Assembly (NCBI GenBank): GCA_037144015.1
Contig: JBAWXQ010000002.1
Span: forward strand, 1-46,244
Source of the DNA: a bacterium
Lineage (GTDB): Bacteria; Verrucomicrobiota; Kiritimatiellia; RFP12; CAIWXQ01
Direction: 5' to 3'
DNA length: 46,244 nt
The notes under the pieces are model-generated. The model was not told where the DNA came from. It worked only from the letters and a program-made list of their open reading frames with translations, and did no database searches. The position numbers and the translations under genes were made by a program. Below, one piece after another: positions 3,000 through 45,875 of the stretch; the first letter of the stretch is position 1; each line of letters starts with the position of its first letter.

Positions 3000-3083
3000 T
3001 CGGTTGACGCGTACGGGCGACGATTACAGAATACGAAGGGAGTCTCTTAATCGTCCACCGTAATCGTCGCCCGTAATCGTCCG
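3000..3083. repeat. Stand-alone hairpin related to the four-helix-bundle cassette ends
   Basis: Perfect 16-bp inverted repeat TACGGGCGACGATTAC (3012-3027) / GTAATCGTCGCCCGTA (3060-3075); begins TCGGTTGACGCGTACGG exactly as at 40714. Confidence 0.85.
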
Positions 3084-3099
3084 CGGAGCCACCGCGAGT

Positions 3100-3207: not shown

Positions 3208-3276
3208 TCGGGTAGTCGGAATTCAGAATTCAGTCAAACCGCCGGCCGGTGGCCGGATAGAGCGAGGCATGAGACA

Positions 3277-3330
3277 TCGTCCTCGTCGTCGTCCTCGTCC
3301 TCGAACGGCGAATGTCGAGGACGAGGACGA
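3277..3330. repeat. Hexamer-repeat hairpin (TCGTCC)n / (GGACGA)n
   Basis: TCGTCC TCGTCG TCGTCC TCGTCC TCGA, then perfect 16-bp inverted repeat 3289-3304 / 3315-3330 with a 10-nt loop. Confidence 0.85.
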
Positions 3331-3398
3331 GAGCGACTGGCTCTTAATCGTAACTCTTTGATGACAAATGCGTTGCGCCTCTATAGATGAGCGGACTC

Positions 3399-24135: not shown

Positions 24136-24183
24136 GCGAGATTGTGACGAAAGATTATGACGAAAGATTAGGGTGAAAGGTTA
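24136..24183. repeat. Left arm of repeat-built inverted repeat (GACGAAAGATTA units)
   Basis: TGACGAAAGATTA TGACGAAAGATTA GGGTGAAAGGTTA; inverse of 24600-24638. Confidence 0.75.
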
Positions 24184-24257
24184 AACTTGCTGTGGTCAGA
24201 TCGCTCCAGCGCAGGCGCGCTGCAAAGCGTCGCCTGCCGCTGTCCGGCCTGTTATTT
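24180..24257 (-). other. Degenerate attC-like site
   Basis: Minus strand: AAATAAC overlapping the stop codon ... central hairpin (24207-24242, with bulged bases) ... GTTTAAC; 78 bp. Confidence 0.4.
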
Positions 24258-24569
24258 GACTGAAGAGTCGAGGATCTCGCCCGCCTGGCTGAACGTGATC
24301 TGCCTGCCTTTGGGCTGACCGAGGTTGAAGTTGTACACCCAATGCAGGTTCCCGTTGCTGTACCAGTTGACATACGGCCCGTGCAGTTGGCCATTGGCAT
24401 AGGTCTTGATCTCGATCAGTTGGCCGTTCGAGTTCTTCACCTGCCAAACGCCTGTGTAGTCCTTAGGAGGTTCCAGTGTGGTGGCTGTTTGGACTGTCGC
24501 CCTGCATCCGGCCAGAAACACCACAGCGGCACACAACATGATCGCAACCACATGAACTGATCTTCTCAT
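24252..24569 (-). CDS. Small lipoprotein with MORN-variant repeat (YwqK-antitoxin-like)
   Basis: Lipobox LAGC; YANGQLHGPYVNWYSNG...FNLGQPKG; GAGGAG RBS; visibly lower GC than neighbours. Confidence 0.8.
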   Translation of the reverse strand: MRRSVHVVAIMLCAAVVFLAGCRATVQTATTLEPPKDYTGVWQVKNSNGQLIEIKTYANGQLHGPYVNWYSNGNLHWVYNFNLGQPKGRQITFSQAGEILDSSVK

Positions 24570-24599
24570 CTCCTCACCATTCCTTTCTTTTGCCGAACC

Positions 24600-24638
24600 T
24601 AATCTTACCCCTAATCTTTCGCTGTAATCTGTCGAATC
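24600..24638. repeat. Right arm of repeat-built inverted repeat (TAATCTTTCG units)
   Basis: TAATCTTACCCCTAATCTTTCGCTGTAATCTGTCGAATC; its reverse complement aligns to 24148-24183. Confidence 0.75.
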
Positions 24639-24649
24639 CTACCTTTTCC

Positions 24650-37004: not shown

Positions 37005-37035
37005 TCGAGGACGACGGACGAGGACGAACGAACGA
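37005..37035. repeat. Degenerate single arm of the (GGACGA)n repeat family
   Basis: TCGAGGACGACGGACGAGGACGAACGAACGA, compare 3315-3330; intergenic once the DUF5107 start is corrected. Confidence 0.6.
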
Positions 37036-38203: not shown

Positions 38204-40597
38204 CTATCCCATCTCGACAACCACCTGAATGACATTCGCCCCCGGCTGATGCGGAATGAGCGTGCCCGGCACGCGCACGCCGTCCACACGCACCTGCCGT
38301 ACACCCTTCATCACGCCATCCGGATTGCGCACGGTGATACGGTAGGTCACGCCACGGAAGACACGTGTGATCTCGAACCGCTTCCATGCGCGCGGGACGC
38401 AGGGGTCAATCCGCAGCCCGTCGAACTCAGGGCGGCAGCCGATGATGTGCTGCAGTGCGCCGATGGCCATCCAGGCGGCGGAGCCGGTGAGCCAGGCATT
38501 GCGACCGCGGCCAACGATGTGGAAGGGCGGCTGCGACACGAACTGGCACATCACATAGGGCTCGACCTCGTGCCGCTCGGCGGCGCGGCTCTTGCCGGCG
38601 GCGCAGAGGCGCTTGAAGTATTCCAACGCCTTGTCGCCGCGCCCCAGCGTCGCCTCGGCGGCAACCATCCAACTCGCCGCGTGGTGGAAGACCGAACCGT
38701 TTTCCTTGATGCCCGGAGGATAGATGCCGGCCGAGCCGATCTCCTCCATATCGAAGCGCGCGAAGGGGCGGTCCATGATCCTGTGCCCGTACGGGCTGCC
38801 CAGCCGCTGCTCCACATTGTCCAGTGCCTTGCGGGCCCGCGGGCCGGTGGCATAGCCGGCCATGACAGCCCAGGGTTGCGGTTCCAGGAAAATACGCCCG
38901 TATTCCGGCGTGCGTTTGGACCCGAGGACCAGACCATCCGTCTTGATCAGCCGCTTGTACCAGGCGCCATCCCAGCCGGACGTGTTGATGCGGCGGCCAA
39001 CCTCCGCGTAGCGGCGTTCCAGGGTGCGCGCATAGGCGGTGTCGCCGCGCCGACGGGCCAGTTCCAGTAAGGCATGCGTGGAGGCGCCATAGAGCGCCGA
39101 CGTGAACACGCTCTCGCTCTTGCGGTCGCCGGGGTTGAGCGAGTCGTTCCAGTCCGCGGCGCCGATTTGCAGCAGACCGTGTTTGCCGCGCAGGCGGAAC
39201 GCCAGATCGTTACAGCGCTGCAGGTGTTCGTACACCGTTCCCTTTGCCTTGGAGAGCGCATAAGGCAGAACCTTGTCCAGGAACGCGAGGTCGCCCGTCT
39301 CTTTGACATATTGATTCACGGTCATGGCCGGCCAGTTGTGATCGTCGTAAAACCCGTTGGCGCCCCAGGACCTGGTCAGCGGGTTGAAGTCGTGGCAGGC
39401 CGAGCCGTCCTCACGGATCGCGGAGATGATCTTTTCGATCATCTCCCGCGCGACTTCAGGGAAGGCGTGGGTGAGCCCCATCTGGTCCTGCGAAGAATCG
39501 CGGAAGCCGATCGAGCGGCCAATGCCCCACTCGTAGGATGAGATCGAACGCGACAGGCGCATGGTCACGGCGGACTGGTACTGCACGAAGCCGTTAACAA
39601 GCGTGTCAAACTCAGGATCCGGGGTGTGGACGACGAAGCGCGAGAGGCGCACGTCCCACCCGGCCTTGAGCGCCGCGAAGGCGCGATCCACTTTCTGCAG
39701 CGTGTCGTAGCGGCGGGCATCCTGCCGCCACGTCCGGTCGCTCGCGCTGATGCCGGTGCGGTAGGCGATGCGCTTGCTCTGGCCCGGCTTGAGCGTGAAA
39801 CGATGTTCGAGCGAGCCGATCGGGTAGCCGCCGTTCTCGCAGTAGTTGGTCGAGCGGCCGGCCTCAACCGCGGCCGGATTGCGCTCGTCGCGGTAGCGGC
39901 CGATAAACCGGTCGCGGTCGCCGTTGTAGCCGTACGGCTTCTCCGAACTGACATGATAACCGCAGTTCTGCACGAAATGCATGTCGTGCAGGCCGGAGCC
40001 GACATCGTTGTAGCTGTAGTGGAGGATGGCGCCATTTTCATGCCGCTGGCGGGAGACGTTCGGGCAGTTGTCGATGTTCATGAGGTCGCGCATGGCGCCC
40101 CAGAAGGCGAACTCGGCGTAGCTGAAGGTCGAGAGCCGGCGCGTCTTGCGCGAGAGGTTGGTCACCGTCAGATCCCAGATCTCCAGCCGCCCCTCGGGCG
40201 GCACGAAGTACGTGATCTCCGTGCGGATGCCCTCATGTTCCATGGCGATGACGGAGTACCCGGTTCCCACGCGGCAGGTGTAGCGGCAGTCGCTGACGGG
40301 CATGTGCACGGGCGCCCAGGTGCTCGACCAGTATTTGCCGGAATCGCGGTCCCGCAGGTACACATAGCGTCCCGGCCGGTCGTACGGCACGTTCTGGTAG
40401 CGGTAGCGCAGCAGGCGGTAGACGCGCGGGTCGGTGTCGTAGCTCACCCCGCCGCCGGTGTTGGAGATCATGGCGACGTAGCTGCCATTCATCAGGTAGT
40501 TGAACCACGGGCGCGGCGTGTCCGGCCGCGTGATCACGTACTCGCGGGTCTGAGGGTCGAAGTAGCCGTAAGGGCCTTTGGCAGTCGGATTCATCAT
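38204..40597 (-). CDS. GH94 glycoside phosphorylase (cellobiose-phosphorylase-like)
   Basis: YGYFD...EYVITRPDTPRPW, RYRYQNVP, GIGRSIGFRDSSQD, ADWNDSL, YPPGIKENG, WLTGSAAW; AAGGAG RBS before 40597. Confidence 0.92.
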   Translation of the reverse strand: MMNPTAKGPYGYFDPQTREYVITRPDTPRPWFNYLMNGSYVAMISNTGGGVSYDTDPRVYRLLRYRYQNVPYDRPGRYVYLRDRDSGKYWSSTWAPVHMPVSDCRYTCRVGTGYSVIAMEHEGIRTEITYFVPPEGRLEIWDLTVTNLSRKTRRLSTFSYAEFAFWGAMRDLMNIDNCPNVSRQRHENGAILHYSYNDVGSGLHDMHFVQNCGYHVSSEKPYGYNGDRDRFIGRYRDERNPAAVEAGRSTNYCENGGYPIGSLEHRFTLKPGQSKRIAYRTGISASDRTWRQDARRYDTLQKVDRAFAALKAGWDVRLSRFVVHTPDPEFDTLVNGFVQYQSAVTMRLSRSISSYEWGIGRSIGFRDSSQDQMGLTHAFPEVAREMIEKIISAIREDGSACHDFNPLTRSWGANGFYDDHNWPAMTVNQYVKETGDLAFLDKVLPYALSKAKGTVYEHLQRCNDLAFRLRGKHGLLQIGAADWNDSLNPGDRKSESVFTSALYGASTHALLELARRRGDTAYARTLERRYAEVGRRINTSGWDGAWYKRLIKTDGLVLGSKRTPEYGRIFLEPQPWAVMAGYATGPRARKALDNVEQRLGSPYGHRIMDRPFARFDMEEIGSAGIYPPGIKENGSVFHHAASWMVAAEATLGRGDKALEYFKRLCAAGKSRAAERHEVEPYVMCQFVSQPPFHIVGRGRNAWLTGSAAWMAIGALQHIIGCRPEFDGLRIDPCVPRAWKRFEITRVFRGVTYRITVRNPDGVMKGVRQVRVDGVRVPGTLIPHQPGANVIQVVVEMG

Positions 40598-40713
40598 GGA
40601 CTCCTTTGACATCACTCCGTTCTGTCAGAGTTGACAGTACGTCTACTTCTCTAACACTTGTCTTTGCAAGGGGTTGGCGGTCTCTCCGCCTTCTCCCCCC
40701 TTTCCTGTCCATT

Positions 40714-40800
40714 TCGGTTGACGCGTACGGCGACGCTTACGGTGAACGTTGGGGAGGATCTCCCCTCGTAATCCGTACGCGTCGCCGTGCGCGTCAACCG
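40714..40800. repeat. Long hairpin A downstream of the four-helix-bundle gene
   Basis: CGGTTGACGCGTACGGCGACGCTTACGG...GGGGAG-GAT-CTCCCC...CCGTACGCGTCGCCGTGCGCGTCAACCG; 6-nt ACGnnn periodicity. Confidence 0.9.
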
Positions 40801-40803
40801 GCT

Positions 40804-41559
40804 CTACCCGTGATGGTCATTACTCTTCTTGTTGCTCGCGCACCACGCGTGAAGCATCGATACGATCCTCGCTTGCATGGCTTTGCCGTCTACCACGCGA
40901 GAGGCGGTCATCTCACCGCGTGCAACCATCAGGTCGAGCGAGAGGAGGGTTTGGAAGGCATGTTCTTCAGCCAACTTCATGAACCGATTCTGATCCGCGA
41001 CACTCGACCGCCCATGGCCTTCGGCTATGTTCAGAACCGTGCCTGTGGTGCTCTCGTCCAGCTTTCGTCTTCTCCTCCTCTGTGCCAACTTCTCCAGAAG
41101 GCCGTGAGTCCACCGCACGGACTCCACAGAAACCCTGTACATATCAAGTTCCATAAACGGGAACCTCGGACTGCCGTATGAGGCAGATTCCTCGCGGACC
41201 TGGCCAACGCGTGCTCGCTTCAGTCCAAGCAGCATTCCACGTATTCGCCATAGTCTACCCATGCAGGCTGCATAAGCGTCTTCGTTGATGGCGCTCTTGG
41301 CCATGCACACATCCAGCGAAGCTGCGCACTCGTGCGCGGAGGCGATGGACACGTCCAACCAGGCTGAACGCTGCGCCGAATCGGGGGCATGCACGTTCGC
41401 TTGCATGAAATTCACCCCAATGCTCTCCATCGCTCTGTCCAGATGGTCAAACACCGCGATCGGCTGCTCAGCGCCTGAAATGATGTCGCCGCATTGGCCG
41501 GCGACCTCCAGATAGACTCTGTAGAGGTCAAGGCGCTCGTGAGATAACTCCGTTTGCAT
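40804..41559 (-). CDS. Tandem (two-domain) four-helix-bundle protein, 23S rRNA IVP / TIGR02436-like
   Basis: Two repeats: HERLDLYR...HLDRAMESIGVNFMQA...SAHECAASLD and FMELDMYR...KLDESTTGTVLNIAEGHGR; VREESASY linker; lower GC. Confidence 0.85.
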   Translation of the reverse strand: MQTELSHERLDLYRVYLEVAGQCGDIISGAEQPIAVFDHLDRAMESIGVNFMQANVHAPDSAQRSAWLDVSIASAHECAASLDVCMAKSAINEDAYAACMGRLWRIRGMLLGLKRARVGQVREESASYGSPRFPFMELDMYRVSVESVRWTHGLLEKLAQRRRRRKLDESTTGTVLNIAEGHGRSSVADQNRFMKLAEEHAFQTLLSLDLMVARGEMTASRVVDGKAMQARIVSMLHAWCASNKKSNDHHG

Positions 41560-41583
41560 ATCTTCGTCCTTTTCGCACTGCCG

Positions 41584-41688
41584 TCGGTTGACGCTTACGG
41601 CGACGCATACGGATCACGATCCGACTTCGCCAAGGGGGGCAGAGGGGGGAAGTCGTCCACCATAAGCGTCGCCGTACGCGTCAACCGA
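41584..41688. repeat. Long hairpin B upstream of the four-helix-bundle gene
   Basis: TCGGTTGACGCTTACGGCGACGCATACGG ... CCATAAGCGTCGCCGTACGCGTCAACCGA; arms are an inverted copy of those of hairpin A. Confidence 0.9.
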
Positions 41689-41729
41689 TTCCCGCTTTCA
41701 CCTTTTCATAGAACTCTTGACAGTACCCA

Positions 41730-44700
41730 TCACTCGCCACCCTTTCGGGCGGCGGACATGCGCATCACGGGGACGCCGACGGGAACGCGCCGTTCGGCCG
41801 TGTAGTTGCGTTCTCCATACCGCCGGGCCTGGTCATAATAGGAGACCTCGACATAGCCGCCGGCCACCACGGGCAGGGCATTGTTCGTTGCGTCACGCTC
41901 TTCGTCCGGCAGCACTTCGACGGTGTCGACGCTCCCCTCGAAAACGCCGCTGCTGACCTCGGTCTCGCGCAAATAACCGACCAGTGCCTGACCCGCGCTG
42001 CTTGCAAACTTCACCTTGATTTGATTGCGGACGTGTGGATCGGTATTCATGTCGGCATCGGCGATGCGCACGCCCAGCGGTTCTCCCGGGATGATCGCCG
42101 CCAGGGATTCCGCGGTCTTGCCGGGTTTCACGGCGGTGATCGCCGCGTCCGATCCCAGCAGGACCAGGTCGCCCCAGACGCTCGGGGTCATGGACGCCTG
42201 CTTGCCGAGTTCCGTGGTCCACCAGAAATAGGCATTGTCGCCGTTGTCGGTGCTGTAGTCGAAGGCGATGATCCGGCCCGGCGTCAGGTTCGGCTTCCGC
42301 AAGCGGGCCACCGGCATGAAGATTTCGACCTGGTAGCCCCGGGGATTCGCGGTGCGCTTCATGGCCATGCGGGGAGCTTCAGGCGCGGTGTTGTTGGCGC
42401 GAAACAGTTCGGTGCGGGTCCCCGGCATGATCATCTCCCCTCCCATTATTCCCGGCTCGCGGCGGGACCCCAGGGGCCAGAACCAGAACTGCTGCTGGTC
42501 CTCCTGGCGGATATCGCTGCGGCGATTGCTGAGATCGAACCACAGTTCCAGGCAATCGCCCTCCCAGAAGTTCTTCCGGTCGATGTTGGTATCGTCCTCA
42601 TCGTCCACCATCTGGTAGGCGAAGTAGAACCCGCTGTAGTCCCATTGCACCATGATATAGCGGTTGGTCTCCCAGGCCGCGGGAATGGGCTTGCTCCAGT
42701 GGGCCTTTTCGATGACGCCGCGGAGCGCGAACGGCCGCACGCCCGCCCATTCGGCCAGGTCGCCATCGATGGTCGGCGGGTTGGTCGCGAACGGCGCCCC
42801 GCCGTAGGCGAACGTCTTGAACTCGGGCGGCGCCAGCGTACGTTCGGCCTTAACCAGGGCATTGGTCGGCGCCTGCGTTCGGTCGCGGCGGGAGCCGACC
42901 AGGATGAGCGACGGCCGATTCGACGCGATCTCGGCGGTGGCGACCGAGATCGCATTGGTCAGCGACGGCGCCAGCAGCACGACCTCCTTCACCTCGCGCC
43001 CCTGGATCACCGTCTCGAGGTTCTTGCGGTATTCCGAGGGATTCTCCAGGAATCCGCGGCTGCGGCGGCTGCTCACGCCGGCCTTCAGCGTCTGCCCAAG
43101 TCTGGCCAGGTTGTCGCTCATGCCCGCGATTAACGTCTCGCGCCCGCCGGTCGAGAGGGAGCGCATCGCGCCGCCCCTTGCGTCCGCCATCCGCTGGCGC
43201 AGGGAGTCGGTCTGGCTCTCGCCGAACGACTCGGCGCCCGGCAGGCGGAGCGAGGATTTCGCGCTAACACTGAGGGCGCTCTGCGTGCCGGCCTTGAGCG
43301 ACTTGGCGAGCGAGTTTTCCAGCGCCTGGCCGACCGCGTCCATGCCGGTGTCGTCCCCGGCGGATTCGGCAGCCTGCGCGCCCGTCGTCTCCGGGCCCTT
43401 CTTCTTCCGGTTCTTTATCTTTCCTTTGCTTGCGCCATCCTTCGGCGTGCCGCCAGAGGCCTCAGCCTCGTCGCCGCTCGTTTCGTTTGCATCCGCGTTG
43501 TCTTCGGCGGCCAGTTTCCGGCGCACGGCGTCCGGCTTGACACCAAACTGCTTCGCCGTCTGCCCCATCATCTCGGCGAAGGCGTTGTCGAGCAGATTGG
43601 ATTCGCTCCCCGTGAGGAGTAGATCGGCGGCCTGCTGACCCACGCGCCTGACGAAGCTTTCGTCCTTCTCCATTCCCTTCCTGGCGAGCACCTTCCCCAC
43701 CAGGTCCTCGGCCTTGGCGCGGAACTCGGTGGCGACTTTCTCGCGCAGCGCCTGGCGCACGAACTCGCGCGTTTTCTCCCGCAACGCCGGATCCTCGGTA
43801 AGGGCGGCATCCACGGTCTCGACGAAATTGCTTTCGAAGCGCTGGGCCGCGCCGCCCAGGAGGTTTTTTTCGCTCGCGATCTGGCGCGACAGGTCGGAAA
43901 GGCGGTTGGTGGCGGCCACCATGTCGCGCTGCGCGATGGAGATCTCCATACGCCCCGGCCGCGGTCCGGATTGGGGGACCTGCGGGTCAGCGGGTTTCGC
44001 TGTCAAGGCGTCGGCAGCGTGCGTCACCGCCGTTTCGCCCGTATCGCGGACATCCTTCGCCGTCTGCTCGATCGCGCGGCTGGTCTGCGTCTCGGACCCC
44101 TTGTCGGCGGCCGCGGCGGCCTTCGCCAGGTGAGCCTGCGCGGTATTCAGCGTCTTCATGATCGCATCCATGCTGCCGCGCGCCGTGCCGGCGGACTTGA
44201 CTTCTTCAGCCGTCGGCCCGCCGATCATGCTTGAGAGTTCGCTGCGCGTGCGCGTCAGGTCGTTTACGAGGTTGGAGATCGCGGCGCGGCTCTGTGCGCT
44301 GGACTGCAGGGCCGCCGCGATGCTGTTGGCGGCTGTCAGATCCTTGGCCCGTTGCACGGGCCCGGCCACAACCGCATCGGTCTGGCGGGCCGCCGCGGCG
44401 AGCGCGTCGGCGACCGGCTTCTCGGCCTTGTCGGCCAGTGGCGCGGCTGTGCCGCGCAGATCCCGGGCCGCGCCATCGAGCGCGGTGCGGATCGCCTCCT
44501 GCGCCTCCGTTGCGCCCGTCCGGGCGGCCGAGGCTTCGCGCTGGGCGGCGCGCCGGCCGGCATCGGCCTGGAGCGAAACCGCCGCGACCGCCTGGGCGTT
44601 CGCCATGGCCTTGTCCAGAAGGTTTGTCGCGTTACTCGCGGCTGTGAGCGCCGCGGCCGCAGCCTTGGCCACGGCGGCATTGGTGCTGGCGGCAGCGGTC

Positions 44701-45875
44701 GTGAGCGACTTGGCCGAGTCGGCGACCGCGCGGGCGCTGTCCGCCAGAGCGGAGGCGGCCTTCTCGGAGGCCGTGGCGGCTTTGGCGGGGTCATTGCCCT
44801 GGAGAGACGCGGATGCGGCCTTGACCGCGTCATTGGCGGTCTTCGCGGCCGCGGCCGCGGCGGCGAACCCGGCTTTGGCGTTAGCCGCCTGGGCCTGCCC
44901 GGCCTGGGTCGCGGCTTCCTGGAGCGCCGCCAGCGCGCCGGCCAGCGACTTCTCGACATTGGCCTGGGCACCGGCCGCCTCCTTGAGTCGTGCATCGCTT
45001 TTTGCGGCGCTCTCGTCGGCTGCGGCCTTGGCGGCGAGATCCTTGTCCAGCGCGGCGGTCTGGCGCGCCGCCTCGGCGGCCGCCCGCAGGGCCTTCTCCA
45101 CGCTGGCATCGGCCTTGGCGGCGGCGTCCGCGCGCTTGCGGTTCTCGCCCAGCGTCCGCGCGAGATCCTCGCCAATGGCCGCGCTCTGGGTTTTGGCCTG
45201 GTCGATCTGCTGTTGCGCCTGTGTCAGGCCAGTGGTTGCGGCGGTGAGTTCCTTCTGGCGGCGGGCGCGCTCCTCGGCCAGGAGTTTATCCACCTCGCCG
45301 CGCGCCTTTTGGCTTTCCGCCTGGCTCATGAGTTCGCGGGTCTTCTGGTTGAACTCCGGCAGGGTCGCGGCGACACCGGACAACACCTGCGCGGCGATCT
45401 CGTCTTTGGTCTGGTCGCCCAGTTCGGCCATCAGCGCGTCGATCGCGGTTTCCCGCAGGCCGCGCATGGCCGCCTCCAGGTCGGCCGGCGTCAACTCCGA
45501 CAGGTTCTTCATGGCGAGTTCGGATGCGCTGGCCTCGATGTTCGTCTGCAGGGCGGCCAGCGAGTTGGTCCAGAACGATTCGAACGTGGCGGGCGCCAGA
45601 TCGCCGGCCGCCCTGCGAATATCCTCCTTGAGCGCCTTGGCCAACTCCTTCCTGACCTCCTCGCGGGCCGCTTCCTGCGCGATCTTCTCCGCGGCCCGTT
45701 GTTTCATGAGCATGACCTGCTCATCCGAAACCGGTTCCTCCTGCTTGCGAAACAGACCGAGAAGGGAGGGAACAACGATCATCCCCACCAGCGCCACGTG
45801 CAGGACAATCGAGATGCCGATGAACACCCGCAAGGGCGTGCTCATGACGGGGCGGGTTGGTTTGTCAGGGCTCAT
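41730..45875 (-). CDS. Giant TonB/TolA-like membrane-anchored coiled-coil protein with C-terminal CBM9-like domain
   Basis: N-terminal TM with S22/H26/I33/S37 (SHLS spacing); long Ala-rich helical region; PPTIDGDLAEW...FWEGDCLELWFD...GYQVEIFMP; directly downstream of exbD. Confidence 0.8.
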   Translation of the reverse strand: MSPDKPTRPVMSTPLRVFIGISIVLHVALVGMIVVPSLLGLFRKQEEPVSDEQVMLMKQRAAEKIAQEAAREEVRKELAKALKEDIRRAAGDLAPATFESFWTNSLAALQTNIEASASELAMKNLSELTPADLEAAMRGLRETAIDALMAELGDQTKDEIAAQVLSGVAATLPEFNQKTRELMSQAESQKARGEVDKLLAEERARRQKELTAATTGLTQAQQQIDQAKTQSAAIGEDLARTLGENRKRADAAAKADASVEKALRAAAEAARQTAALDKDLAAKAAADESAAKSDARLKEAAGAQANVEKSLAGALAALQEAATQAGQAQAANAKAGFAAAAAAAKTANDAVKAASASLQGNDPAKAATASEKAASALADSARAVADSAKSLTTAAASTNAAVAKAAAAALTAASNATNLLDKAMANAQAVAAVSLQADAGRRAAQREASAARTGATEAQEAIRTALDGAARDLRGTAAPLADKAEKPVADALAAAARQTDAVVAGPVQRAKDLTAANSIAAALQSSAQSRAAISNLVNDLTRTRSELSSMIGGPTAEEVKSAGTARGSMDAIMKTLNTAQAHLAKAAAAADKGSETQTSRAIEQTAKDVRDTGETAVTHAADALTAKPADPQVPQSGPRPGRMEISIAQRDMVAATNRLSDLSRQIASEKNLLGGAAQRFESNFVETVDAALTEDPALREKTREFVRQALREKVATEFRAKAEDLVGKVLARKGMEKDESFVRRVGQQAADLLLTGSESNLLDNAFAEMMGQTAKQFGVKPDAVRRKLAAEDNADANETSGDEAEASGGTPKDGASKGKIKNRKKKGPETTGAQAAESAGDDTGMDAVGQALENSLAKSLKAGTQSALSVSAKSSLRLPGAESFGESQTDSLRQRMADARGGAMRSLSTGGRETLIAGMSDNLARLGQTLKAGVSSRRSRGFLENPSEYRKNLETVIQGREVKEVVLLAPSLTNAISVATAEIASNRPSLILVGSRRDRTQAPTNALVKAERTLAPPEFKTFAYGGAPFATNPPTIDGDLAEWAGVRPFALRGVIEKAHWSKPIPAAWETNRYIMVQWDYSGFYFAYQMVDDEDDTNIDRKNFWEGDCLELWFDLSNRRSDIRQEDQQQFWFWPLGSRREPGIMGGEMIMPGTRTELFRANNTAPEAPRMAMKRTANPRGYQVEIFMPVARLRKPNLTPGRIIAFDYSTDNGDNAYFWWTTELGKQASMTPSVWGDLVLLGSDAAITAVKPGKTAESLAAIIPGEPLGVRIADADMNTDPHVRNQIKVKFASSAGQALVGYLRETEVSSGVFEGSVDTVEVLPDEERDATNNALPVVAGGYVEVSYYDQARRYGERNYTAERRVPVGVPVMRMSAARKGGE

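Follow-up and report, generated by a model that had tools for sequence, protein, structure and literature searches.

The window, a 46,244-nt stretch of DNA from a bacterium of the phylum Verrucomicrobiota, features a tandem-duplicated PF05635 (S23p/Avd-like) gene that is enclosed by inverted repeat arrays. It is probably (about 0.55) a selfish gene cassette of the intervening sequence (IVS) type that is located outside of rRNA and that encodes a self-associating protein which would bind the arrays of its own element. This reading rests on the anatomy of the cassette, the association of gene and arrays, the co-inheritance of protein and arms, the differing contexts of the homologues, and a paralogous cassette (C22) between rsmA and mutS. 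The gene would travel as a unit with inverted arrays of ~12-nt units on both sides, and in the window each array has doubled back on itself as a local hairpin, so that four arms result. The gene-plus-arrays layout recurs in many bacterial phyla and points to a widespread, little-described selfish cassette.

The cassette consists of the gene for a 251-aa tandem PF05635 four-helix-bundle protein (40804-41559, minus strand) between two strong hairpins (Table 1), and no transposase or recombinase is found inside it. The neighbours are a GH94 phosphorylase gene and the gene for a 1381-aa CBM9 protein, and the site is not in a 23S rRNA helix. An earlier sequence-only reading had placed the cassette in a protein-coding operon; the neighbours are indeed protein-coding, and the operon amounts to just same-strand neighbours.

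Table 1. Features of the cassette and of a solo hairpin in the window (positions in nt of the window; TRF, tandem repeat call).
Feature	Position	Strand	Remarks
Outer arm R2	41653..41688	none	5' end of the cassette in sense (minus-strand) RNA; complementary to L1 (33/35) and L2
Right-hairpin loop	41620..41652	none	G/C-run-rich
Inner arm L2	41584..41619	none	12-nt units GACGCATACGGC, 1.9 copies; TRF 41590-41612, period 12
N-terminal four-helix bundle	41215..41559	minus	Residues 1-115; helices 11-29, 35-56, 62-87 and 93-115 (AlphaFold2)
Linker	41161..41214	minus	Residues 116-133; conserved V-R-E-E..Y motif; pLDDT low at 127-129
C-terminal four-helix bundle	40804..41160	minus	Residues 134-251; motif LNIAEGHGR; best PF05635 stretch 139-237; stop codon 40804-40806
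Inner arm R1	40766..40800	none	12-nt units CCGTACGCGTCG; TRF 40773-40795
Left-hairpin loop	40749..40765	none	
Outer arm L1	40714..40748	none	12-nt units GACGCGTACGGC; TRF 40720-40742
Solo hairpin of the cassette's family, no gene enclosed	3000..3086		-44.4 kcal/mol, z -6.1; TRF 3048-3082, period 13

An inverted-repeat comparison of the window revealed that all four hairpin arms are mutually complementary. The outer pair (40714-40748 and 41654-41688) matches over 35 nt with 94% complementarity (33/35, the count given in the sequence-only reading) and the inner pair (40766-40800 and 41585-41619) over 35 nt with 89%. Within the left hairpin the arms 40715-40753 and 40762-40800 are 82% complementary over 39 nt, and within the right hairpin the arms 41584-41619 and 41653-41688 are 83% complementary over 36 nt. 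One palindrome present twice makes all four arm pairings follow automatically, which suits a very improbable alternative where hairpins of a generic REP-like kind, with a role in termination or mRNA stabilization, stand between genes and by chance on both sides of an unrelated small gene. Against this, a consensus scan of 40500-41900 found no intrinsic-terminator-like site; it found no sigma-70-like promoter either. The window contains 4 copies of a 22-nt arm motif where 0.01 would be expected, a count reached in 0 of 100 shuffles. The local hairpins fold with -62.9 and -64.7 kcal/mol (z -9.2 and -10.1), and none of 200 shuffles folds as well. The arm repeat period determined by TRF is 12 nt (unit GACGCGTACGGC, 1.9 copies). 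The 6-nt periodicity noted earlier persists as a half-unit, an ACG every 6 nt that is seen by eye, and is not the TRF period. No Rfam match was obtained in the window. A 10-nt direct repeat, TTGACAGTAC, is located at 40631 and 41719, outside both hairpins; no comparable repeat is visible at the paralogous C22 cassette, and a target-site duplication is not established. Two further readings were set aside on inspection: integron attC sites, since there is no integrase, the hairpins stand on both sides and the flanks are housekeeping genes, and a CRISPR-like locus, since the units are 12 nt long and there are no spacers.

Two stretches of the 251-aa protein match PF05635 (E 4.7e-13, 49.7 bits, cut-off 33.8), and two match TIGR02436 (45.9 bits, cut-off 24). 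PF05635 is the sole Pfam family that it matches at E <= 0.01; it does not belong to the Y1 (IS200-like) transposases, and no known catalytic motif was found in it. The AlphaFold2 model (pLDDT 91, pTM 0.89) features two four-helix bundles, and a Foldseek comparison of each bundle with solved structures gave a TMt of 0.90 for 2GSC (rmsd 1.3), 0.86 for 2RLD, and 0.84 for Avd (4DWL), with E-values that are all > 0.001 because each target spans just half of the query. The sequence identity to Avd is 13%. The family assignment, the likeness to Avd and the internal tandem duplication that had been read from the letters are thus supported. A model of self-association scored 0.73, versus 0.00 for the best of 3 controls, with the C-domain (160-237) packed head to tail against the N-domain (13-56); the runs share at least 66% of contacts and the partner pLDDT is at least 82. 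In calibration, 20 of 30 proteins with structures solved as pairs of one chain passed the mark, as did 1 of 23 solved as single chains. The pass may reflect memory of the solved homopentamers of the family (2GSC, 2RLD, 4DWL). Ring closure was not seen with three modelled copies. The protein may form a ring or a filament by head-to-tail self-association. Such an assembly would read the arrays of its own element, with about one bundle per 6-7 nt, on a target that could be the DNA or the transcript.

The minimum free energy (MFE) fold of the full sense RNA pairs outer arm with outer arm (35 bp) and inner with inner (33 bp). The long-range pairs have predicted energies of -72.3 and -65.7 kcal/mol, versus about -55 per local pair, and the competition between local and long-range folds that the sequence-only reading proposed is therefore real in silico. 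If transcription reads through the cassette, a stem of ~70 bp could be closed around the ORF by the outer and inner arms, and RNase III may cut this stem as it does in the intervening sequences of 23S rRNA. A bare structural role is the basis of an unlikely alternative, namely that the arms act only as RNA structure, an mRNA counterpart of the rRNA IVS that is cut by RNase III or a stem that hides the RBS, with a protein whose job is unrelated (e.g., defence) and involves no arm binding. The stronger long-range pairing suits this alternative, as does the finding that both outer-arm mismatches in the window cassette are G-U in the sense strand. Additionally, the upstream neighbour is co-oriented with the gene in 41 of 50 loci, and the upstream arrays of single-domain relatives look mostly purine-rich and SD-like on visual inspection and stop 0-40 nt short of the start codon. 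The RNase III cutting of the Coxiella IVS stem (PMC4990558) also fits. Across the family, however, an excess of G-U over A-C in arm mismatches is absent (153 vs 150 in 53 loci; 34 vs 36 in 49 loci) and transversions outnumber transitions (372 vs 78). Pairing in sense RNA is therefore not visibly selected, and of the mRNA-intervening role suggested earlier the in-silico fold is the part that stands. In one double-domain clade (L052, L063, L105, L117, L125) a pyrimidine-rich array lies upstream, so the orientation of the gene within the arms is not fixed. Many homologue loci carry arrays in plain inverted order without local hairpins, and a family-specific repeat period is not needed by a bare stem; these three features all count against a purely structural role.

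The cassette reading is supported by the association of arrays with the gene across genomes, a check that the sequence-only reading had called for. Flanking inverted repeats were found at 42 of 53 double-domain homologue loci versus 3 of 108 control ORFs of the same loci (1 of 42 for non-adjacent control ORFs). This count covers 56 (L070-L125) of 80 loci from named assemblies, 3 of which were dropped for flanks that were too short; L126-L149 were left out as short matches of mostly single-domain length. An inverted-repeat score of at least 15 was reached in 13 of 27 single-domain PF05635 loci versus 0 of 31 controls, and in 19 of 28 loci of PDDEXK_3 genes versus 0 of 37 controls, each set being the 30 best-scoring loci less 3 and 2, respectively, with flanks that were too short. 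The score is below 15 in 11 of 53 double-domain and 14 of 27 single-domain loci. Among order-level homologues it is at least 15 in 15 of 17 testable loci. ORFs and control ORFs are longest-ORF calls made with no gene finder. The order-level and named-assembly sets overlap, and identical ORFs were counted once in the period, mismatch and covariation analyses. Gene and arms co-vary, with a Spearman coefficient of 0.23 between protein identity and flank 7-mer sharing, a value that 0 of 500 permutations attain. Visual inspection showed arrays on the flanks of the gene in 6 of 6 cultured organisms with names, which belong to four further phyla (Nostoc punctiforme, Anabaena cylindrica, Euhalothece, Bernardetia, Treponema saccharophilum and Chlorohelix), and every such gene in the source genome has arrays in its flanks. 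At the cut-offs used, PF05635 was detected in 98 and PDDEXK_3 in 74 of 151 genomes searched from the source phylum. A literature search that left the supplementary tables of PMC4679880 and PMC10053308 outside its scope found no published account of the gene-array association.

The source genome also holds what a chance placement of generic hairpins would draw on: 864 hairpins of many families and ~113 segments flanked by inverted repeats. Many of the 20 ORFs that were picked from these segments and scanned are ordinary genes (peptidase C1, EamA, amidase_3, URO-D, AraC), some with the same hairpin family on both sides, so repeat flanking is not exclusive to the PF05635 family in this genome. 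Chance is opposed by the enrichment in all three gene sets and by the recurrence of the layout in the six named organisms. Furthermore, the arms of the C22 and C161 cassettes are private to those cassettes; the C22 arms, which occur nowhere else in the genome, are thus not a generic repeat.

The repeat period appears to track the architecture of the protein, as judged from three gene lineages, each of which may just inherit its unit length. TRF detects a repeat in 102 of 132 double-domain flanks, 54 of them with a 12-nt and 13 with a 13-nt period, versus 31 of 84 control flanks, just 6 of which have period 12/13. Of the 45 single-domain PF05635 flanks with a repeat, 17 have 7-nt and 15 have 14-nt units, and among the 25 such PDDEXK_3 flanks it is 9 in 11, 8 in 4 and 10 in 3. 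One bundle per 6-7 nt would account for 7-nt units at single-domain genes and composite units of 12-13 nt for the tandem protein. The binding of the protein to its own hairpins that the sequence-only reading proposed gains indirect support from these periods and from the modelled self-association. The periods bear on a further alternative, somewhat less probable than RNA structure alone, in which the arrays are DNA-level ends or recombination sites for a host or trans-encoded recombinase, or for homologous recombination between dispersed copies, and the four-helix-bundle gene is cargo. Three unrelated or differently built protein families that each keep their own period are hard to explain in this way. 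Mere cargo is also not expected to co-vary with the arms or to be there at as many as 42 of 53 loci. The cassette has no linked recombinase, and some arm families are private to one cassette. The symmetric arms, the strand-neutral mismatch pattern and the flips of gene orientation within the arms between clades do fit DNA-level ends.

Dispersed copies of the arms also fit DNA-level ends. The CGGTTGACG family has ~30 solo sites in the genome, and CTTTGTCGCGAG palindromes occur gene-less at 27 sites and equal both arms of loaded cassettes in other genomes. The arm family of the window cassette has 44 arm matches at ~30 sites. The solo hairpin at position 3000 belongs to this family by arm match and fold, as had been proposed, and carries the GACGCGTACGG arm variant, which is confined to this contig. 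The arrays reported at 24136-24638 do have the same unit type; these 13-nt arrays (24139-24640) enclose an ORF that is not a four-helix-bundle gene, which again suits DNA-level ends. The arrays at 3277 and 37005, which had been grouped with the cassette, turned out to be a different family (CGAGGA/TCGTCC, 6 nt).

Mobility is part of the selfish cassette reading. The C22 paralogue lies within the 936 nt that separate rsmA and mutS in the source genome, and in the related genomes G024 and G019 the two genes abut or overlap; this comparison covered 15 of the 29 loci retrieved. By comparison of these sequences, the C22 cassette looks like an insertion between rsmA and mutS. Eight homologues with 58-62% identity have no neighbour in common with the window. 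None of 40 relatives carries a close orthologue of the GH94 neighbour (the best reaches 40% identity), which left no orthologous site in which to look for an empty counterpart of the window cassette. The claim of a mobile element thus gains from C22, and for the window copy neither an empty site nor an excised or inverted form turned up in the contigs of four DNA runs, which are short, with no listed contig spanning the whole stretch. The left junction is at the same place in contigs from three other studies' runs, a point against the cassette reading. At the right junction (41688) no listed contig extends 31 letters to either side, as the contigs stop within the outer arm. In one X4 contig, 40800 is joined to 41575 on the opposite strand. 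In one X3 contig, 22 other letters separate 41619 from 40773, with an 18-nt loop motif that is absent from the source genome. Both contigs are taken for further members of the hairpin family or for assembly across inverted repeats, and not for inversion or excision.

The nearest known counterpart is the IVS of 23S rRNA that carries an S23p ORF, which was reportedly described by Ralph and McClelland in 1993. In Coxiella, RNase III cuts the 28-bp terminal stem of the IVS, and tandem GACAGAT heptamers precede the start codon of S23p (PMC4990558). The same protein family (PF05635) is encoded in the IVS of Coxiella, Leptospira, Xanthomonas and Brucella, and the IVS and the window cassette share an ORF enclosed by complementary termini able to form a long stem (in the window, by in-silico fold), short tandem units just upstream of the ORF (variable in number in the IVS), and the view of them as selfish, possibly once-mobile elements without a transposase. 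The IVS sits in helix 45 of 23S rRNA, whereas the window cassette sits between protein-coding genes, encodes a tandem-duplicate protein, has 12-nt-unit arms folded as local hairpins, and has dispersed solo copies. RNase III cutting is a feature of the Coxiella IVS and a prediction for the window cassette.

Other systems share single aspects of the cassette. Avd is an oligomeric nucleic-acid-binding scaffold that is encoded beside the RNA on which it acts. It has the same fold as each domain of the window protein and is the accessory protein of diversity-generating retroelements (DGRs; PMC10053308). Unlike in a DGR, the two immediate neighbours of the cassette have no reverse transcriptase match and contain glycoside-hydrolase or CBM9 domains only. 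REPIN-RAYT systems, reportedly described by Nunvar in 2010 and by Bertels and Rainey in 2011, resemble the cassette in having a single-copy gene flanked by its own palindromic repeat family with dispersed intergenic copies, several gene-repeat pairs per genome, and gene and repeat that co-diversify. They differ in that their gene encodes a Y1 transposase, unlike that of the window cassette, whose product has no known catalytic site, that the arms of the cassette are tandem arrays and not single REP units, and that some arm families (e.g., C22) have no dispersed copies. Correia/nemis elements of Neisseria are miniature inverted-repeat elements that are cut by RNase III. They share dispersal, hairpin formation, inverted ends and transcription within operons with the cassette, and, unlike it, they carry no gene and no periodic arrays and do have defined terminal repeats with a target duplication. 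The cyanobacterial STRR heptanucleotide tandem repeats are said to have been reported by Mazel in 1990, and the single-domain-gene arrays in Nostoc, Anabaena and Euhalothece are of this STRR/TAACTGA-like kind. Intergenic TAACTGA direct repeats occur in Beggiatoaceae, Cyanobacteria and Bacteroidetes (PMC4679880). These repeats share with the arrays short tandem 7-nt intergenic units that are mostly just upstream of start codons, and they are described as direct repeats before many kinds of genes, whereas the window unit is 12 nt. In the text of PMC4679880, four-helix-bundle genes have 0 occurrences and a mirrored downstream array is unmentioned.

A wider generalization is offered tentatively and is less probable than the cassette reading itself. 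IVS proteins (PF05635 bundles, the tandem form and PDDEXK_3/GxxExxY nucleases) could be sequence-specific partners of the intergenic short tandem arrays of many phyla (STRR-like heptamers, 9-mers and 12-mers), each polymerizing along its own array and helping to maintain or spread it. This would be a REPIN-RAYT-like symbiosis without a transposase, for which the rRNA IVS would be just one landing site. To our knowledge, the function of PF05635 and PDDEXK_3 proteins has not been known since rRNA intervening sequences were first described. The family-specific repeat architecture provides a concrete hypothesis, that the protein reads its own tandem array, and with the arrays at hand, binding, structure and processing could be studied directly in organisms that grow in culture, Nostoc punctiforme among them. 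If true, the hypothesis could explain the origin of heptamer families (cyanobacterial STRR, TAACTGA) and of many REP-like hairpins.

In Anabaena cylindrica an array-flanked gene is located between cas2 and cas1. For annotation, insertion near cas loci may produce an apparent link of these genes to CRISPR loci.

The occurrence of the tandem four-helix-bundle gene within repeat arrays is real, and its first interpretation is partly supported. The window is one complete contig (46,244 nt) of a metagenome-assembled genome, G000, of 3.22 Mb in 440 contigs (65.7% G+C, 89% complete). Profile searches gave two matches each to PF05635 and TIGR02436 for the 251-aa protein, and its AlphaFold2 model (pLDDT 91) features a linker joining two four-helix bundles. 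Superposition of the single bundles gave TMt 0.90 for Xcc0516 (2GSC), 0.86 for BT_0352 (2RLD) and 0.84 for Avd (4DWL), which supports the sequence-only reading of an internally duplicated, Avd-like protein of the family known from 23S rRNA intervening sequences. The nearest named relatives of the gene in the species-representative collection are labeled Kiritimatiellae, and some Victivallales or Verrucomicrobia.

Coordinates of the cassette gene, its neighbors and other repeat-bounded genes of G000 (C numbers are contigs of this genome)
Feature	Location	Strand	Remark
Tandem four-helix-bundle ORF	window 40804-41559	minus	251 aa
GH94 phosphorylase gene	window 38204-40615	minus	neighbor of cassette ORF
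CBM9 protein gene	window 41730-45875	minus	1381 aa; neighbor of cassette ORF
Lipoprotein-like ORF inside the 24139-24640 arrays	window 24255-24572	minus	106 aa; weak MORN_2 match, E 1.8e-5, below cut-off
Winged-helix genes bounded by TCTCACACnTnnAnnGTGTGAGA-type palindromes	C11:3305-3955, C11:20628-21314, C40:12135-12784, C318:39-830

The gene is enclosed by two hairpins, and their four arms pair as had been claimed, with 33 of 35 positions complementary in the outer pair, 89% in the inner pair and 82-83% in the two local hairpins. Any palindrome that is present twice gives all four pairings automatically. The arm motif occurs four times in the window versus 0.01 expected, and the local hairpins are much more stable than shuffled sequences (z -9.2 and -10.1). 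The 6-nt rhythm noted earlier is present, but it is half of the 12-nt arm unit determined by TRF. The minimum-energy fold of the sense RNA (40700-41700) features outer-outer (35 bp) and inner-inner (33 bp) pairing instead of the local hairpins, and both mismatches in the outer arms of this copy are G-U. Family-wide, where an upstream and a downstream arm mismatch, neither strand is favored (153 of G-U type versus 150 of A-C type; 34 versus 36 in a second count), thus sense-RNA pairing is under no visible selection. The predicted fold agrees with the proposed competition of local and long-range pairing; the mismatch counts lend no support to an mRNA-intervening element. A 10-nt direct repeat (TTGACAGTAC), a candidate target duplication, is located outside both hairpins, at 40631-40640 on the left side (74 nt away) and at 41719-41728 on the right side (31 nt away).

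The genome contains 864 hairpins with a stem of at least 18 bp, many made of tandem units, and ~113 segments that have inverted repeats of 26 nt or longer at their two ends. Twenty ORFs chosen from these segments were scanned and many are ordinary (peptidase C1, EamA, pseudouridine synthase, amidase_3, URO-D, AraC, sirohaem synthase), therefore repeat-flanked genes are in themselves nothing special in this genome. Full-length homologues of the tandem protein (31-61% identity) are present in 23 of the 151 searched genomes of the order, and 519 relatives are found in the species-representative collection. Flanks were scored by the best ungapped inverted repeat between the 250 nt upstream and the 250 nt downstream of the gene, with a threshold of at least 15. 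This score is reached at 15 of 17 testable order-level loci, and, among named assemblies, at 42 of the 53 loci that could be tested versus 3 of 108 other ORFs at those loci and 1 of 42 non-adjacent controls; the association of arms with the family across genomes, set beforehand as a test, is borne out by these counts. The arm sequence varies by locus, yet nearly all arms are tandem arrays. TRF found a repeat in 102 of 132 tandem-gene flanks (period 12 in 54, 13 in 13, multiples in ~19) and in 31 of 84 control flanks, where the periods are scattered. The loose cores GACGA and GACAA, repeated at least four times, each occur at 19 of 61 loci versus 0 of 47 background stretches. Sharing of flank 7-mers correlates with protein identity (Spearman 0.23, reached by 0 of 500 permutations). 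The closest homologues (58-62% identity) feature arms like those of the window cassette (TCGGTTnACG...ACGGCGACG type) and have no neighboring gene in common with the window. Gene orientation within the arms varies by clade, and neighbors are co-oriented upstream at 41 of 50 loci and downstream at 34 of 49, which is not clearly higher than for adjacent bacterial genes generally.

All PF05635 genes of this genome have periodic inverted arrays in their flanks. The same holds for two genes that encode a four-helix bundle fused to a cysteine-rich C-terminal extension (contigs C48 and C6), and for the two full-length PDDEXK_3 (GxxExxY) genes. Among the 30 best-scoring loci sampled for each family, single-domain PF05635 genes across the phylum score at least 15 at 13 of 27 loci versus 0 of 31 controls, and PDDEXK_3 genes at 19 of 28 versus 0 of 37. 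The single-domain arrays have period 7 in 17 and period 14 in 15 of 45 repeat-bearing flanks, and the PDDEXK_3 arrays, with the core CAC(A/G)GA, have period 9 in 11, 8 in 4 and 10 in 3 of 25. The period therefore follows the protein: single bundles go with ~7 nt, the tandem protein with 12-13 nt and the nuclease family with ~9 nt; the match comprises three lineages only, so shared descent could explain it. Inspection by eye of named cultured organisms revealed GTCGGAG/GTCGGAA upstream of the gene and mirror arrays downstream in Nostoc punctiforme PCC 73102, TTAGTGA x17 in Bernardetia and CTGGTCA x13 in Euhalothece, as well as arrays in Treponema saccharophilum, Anabaena cylindrica and Chlorohelix. 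In A. cylindrica PCC 7122 (pANACY.01, 155585-155932; locus L262) AGTAAAA heptamer arrays accompany a four-helix-bundle gene located between cas2 and cas1. Insertions like this one may explain why a figure legend in PMC10910872 counts '23S rRNA IVP' with the CRISPR-linked proteins. On a Chlorohelix plasmid (L264) a single-domain four-helix-bundle gene has a helicase-related gene on one side and an N-6 DNA methylase gene on the other. A further copy in G000 (C161:4943-5332) is flanked by GAGTGGA heptamer arrays; the upstream DNA reads through into a stretch that, by eye, resembles the terminal part of a specificity subunit of a restriction-modification system.

The closest known system is the S23p-bearing 23S rRNA intervening sequence, which has the protein family, enclosing complementary termini and tandem units in common with the cassette. 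The cassette lacks its defining location, however; its protein is duplicated, its arrays have 12-nt units, and solo hairpins are dispersed in the genome. It is a known S23p/intervening-sequence kind in altered form, outside 23S rRNA. REPIN-RAYT pairs are alike in logic, but the cassette has no Y1 transposase. Heptamer repeats that precede start codons have already been described, in a paper without mention of four-helix-bundle genes (PMC4679880). A search of the openly readable literature found no description of the gene-array association.

A three-copy model of the protein has a self-association score of 0.73 (best control 0.00). In calibration, 20 of 30 proteins solved as pairs of the same chain came up to the mark, as did 1 of 23 solved as single chains. 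Contacts agree between runs by at least 66%, with pLDDT of at least 82; the C-domain touches the N-domain of the next copy and the ring stays unclosed at three copies. The model supports head-to-tail self-association, although the score may reflect solved homopentamers of this family that the predictor had learned. The favored reading is a cassette whose protein would bind its own arrays, on DNA or transcript, since a chain or ring of bundles, each reading one short unit, would explain both the 7-nt and the 12-13-nt period as well as composite units of two unlike halves. An RNase III-sensitive stem is a plausible added step, in analogy to Coxiella, whose element has a 28-bp terminal stem, is excised by RNase III and features GACAGAT heptamers ahead of the ORF (PMC4990558).

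The second tandem gene of the genome (C22, 6869-7630) has arms of CTTAATCG units, which have no other occurrence in the genome, and its cassette sits within a 936-nt gap separating rsmA from mutS. In the related genomes G024 and G019 the rsmA stop abuts or overlaps the mutS start; 15 of 29 loci were inspected, and rsmA is at most 1.5 kb away in four of those. The comparison reads as an insertion of the C22 cassette between rsmA and mutS, with deletion in the other lineage as the alternative. In genome G007 (locus L181) a TCTCACACnTnnAnnGTGTGAGA-type palindrome lies beside a coding stretch in this same gap. Gene-less palindromes of CTTTGTCGCGAG units, found at 27 sites of G000, are perfect or near-perfect, loop-free and made of three units plus their complement (e.g., C73:3700-3771, C219:1-72, C289:3093-3164). 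Loaded tandem cassettes from other genomes (L052, L117, L125) have arms that, joined centrally, are the same type of palindrome; therefore the gene occupies the palindrome apex, as in an intervening sequence. No gene with CTTTGTCGCGAG-type arms was found in this 89%-complete assembly. For the window's own cassette no empty site was found, and its left junction is bridged at the same place in contigs from three other studies (X3 39945-41278, X4 40603-40927, X6 40566-40799).

The arm family of the window cassette has 44 arm hits at ~30 genome sites, including the hairpin at 3000-3086, rightly taken for a solo copy. The arrays at 3277 and 37005, reported as similar, belong to a second family of 6-nt TCGTCC/CGAGGA units (3262-3336 and 37006-37031) that is unrelated in sequence to the arms; at 3277-3331 these units fold into a hairpin (-38.8 kcal/mol, z -3.95), whereas 37006-37027 is a single array. 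The arrays placed at 24136-24638 are inverted 13-nt arrays (AGATTAnGnCGAA, ~3 units per side; 24139-24183 and 24590-24640) with no other occurrence in the genome. Their unit type does match the arms of tandem cassettes elsewhere (L104, L123), but the enclosed ORF is not a four-helix bundle, and cargo exchange may have placed it there. Additionally, this genome has ~190-aa genes that encode two winged-helix (ArsR/MarR-type) domains and lie, each of them, between near-perfect palindromes.
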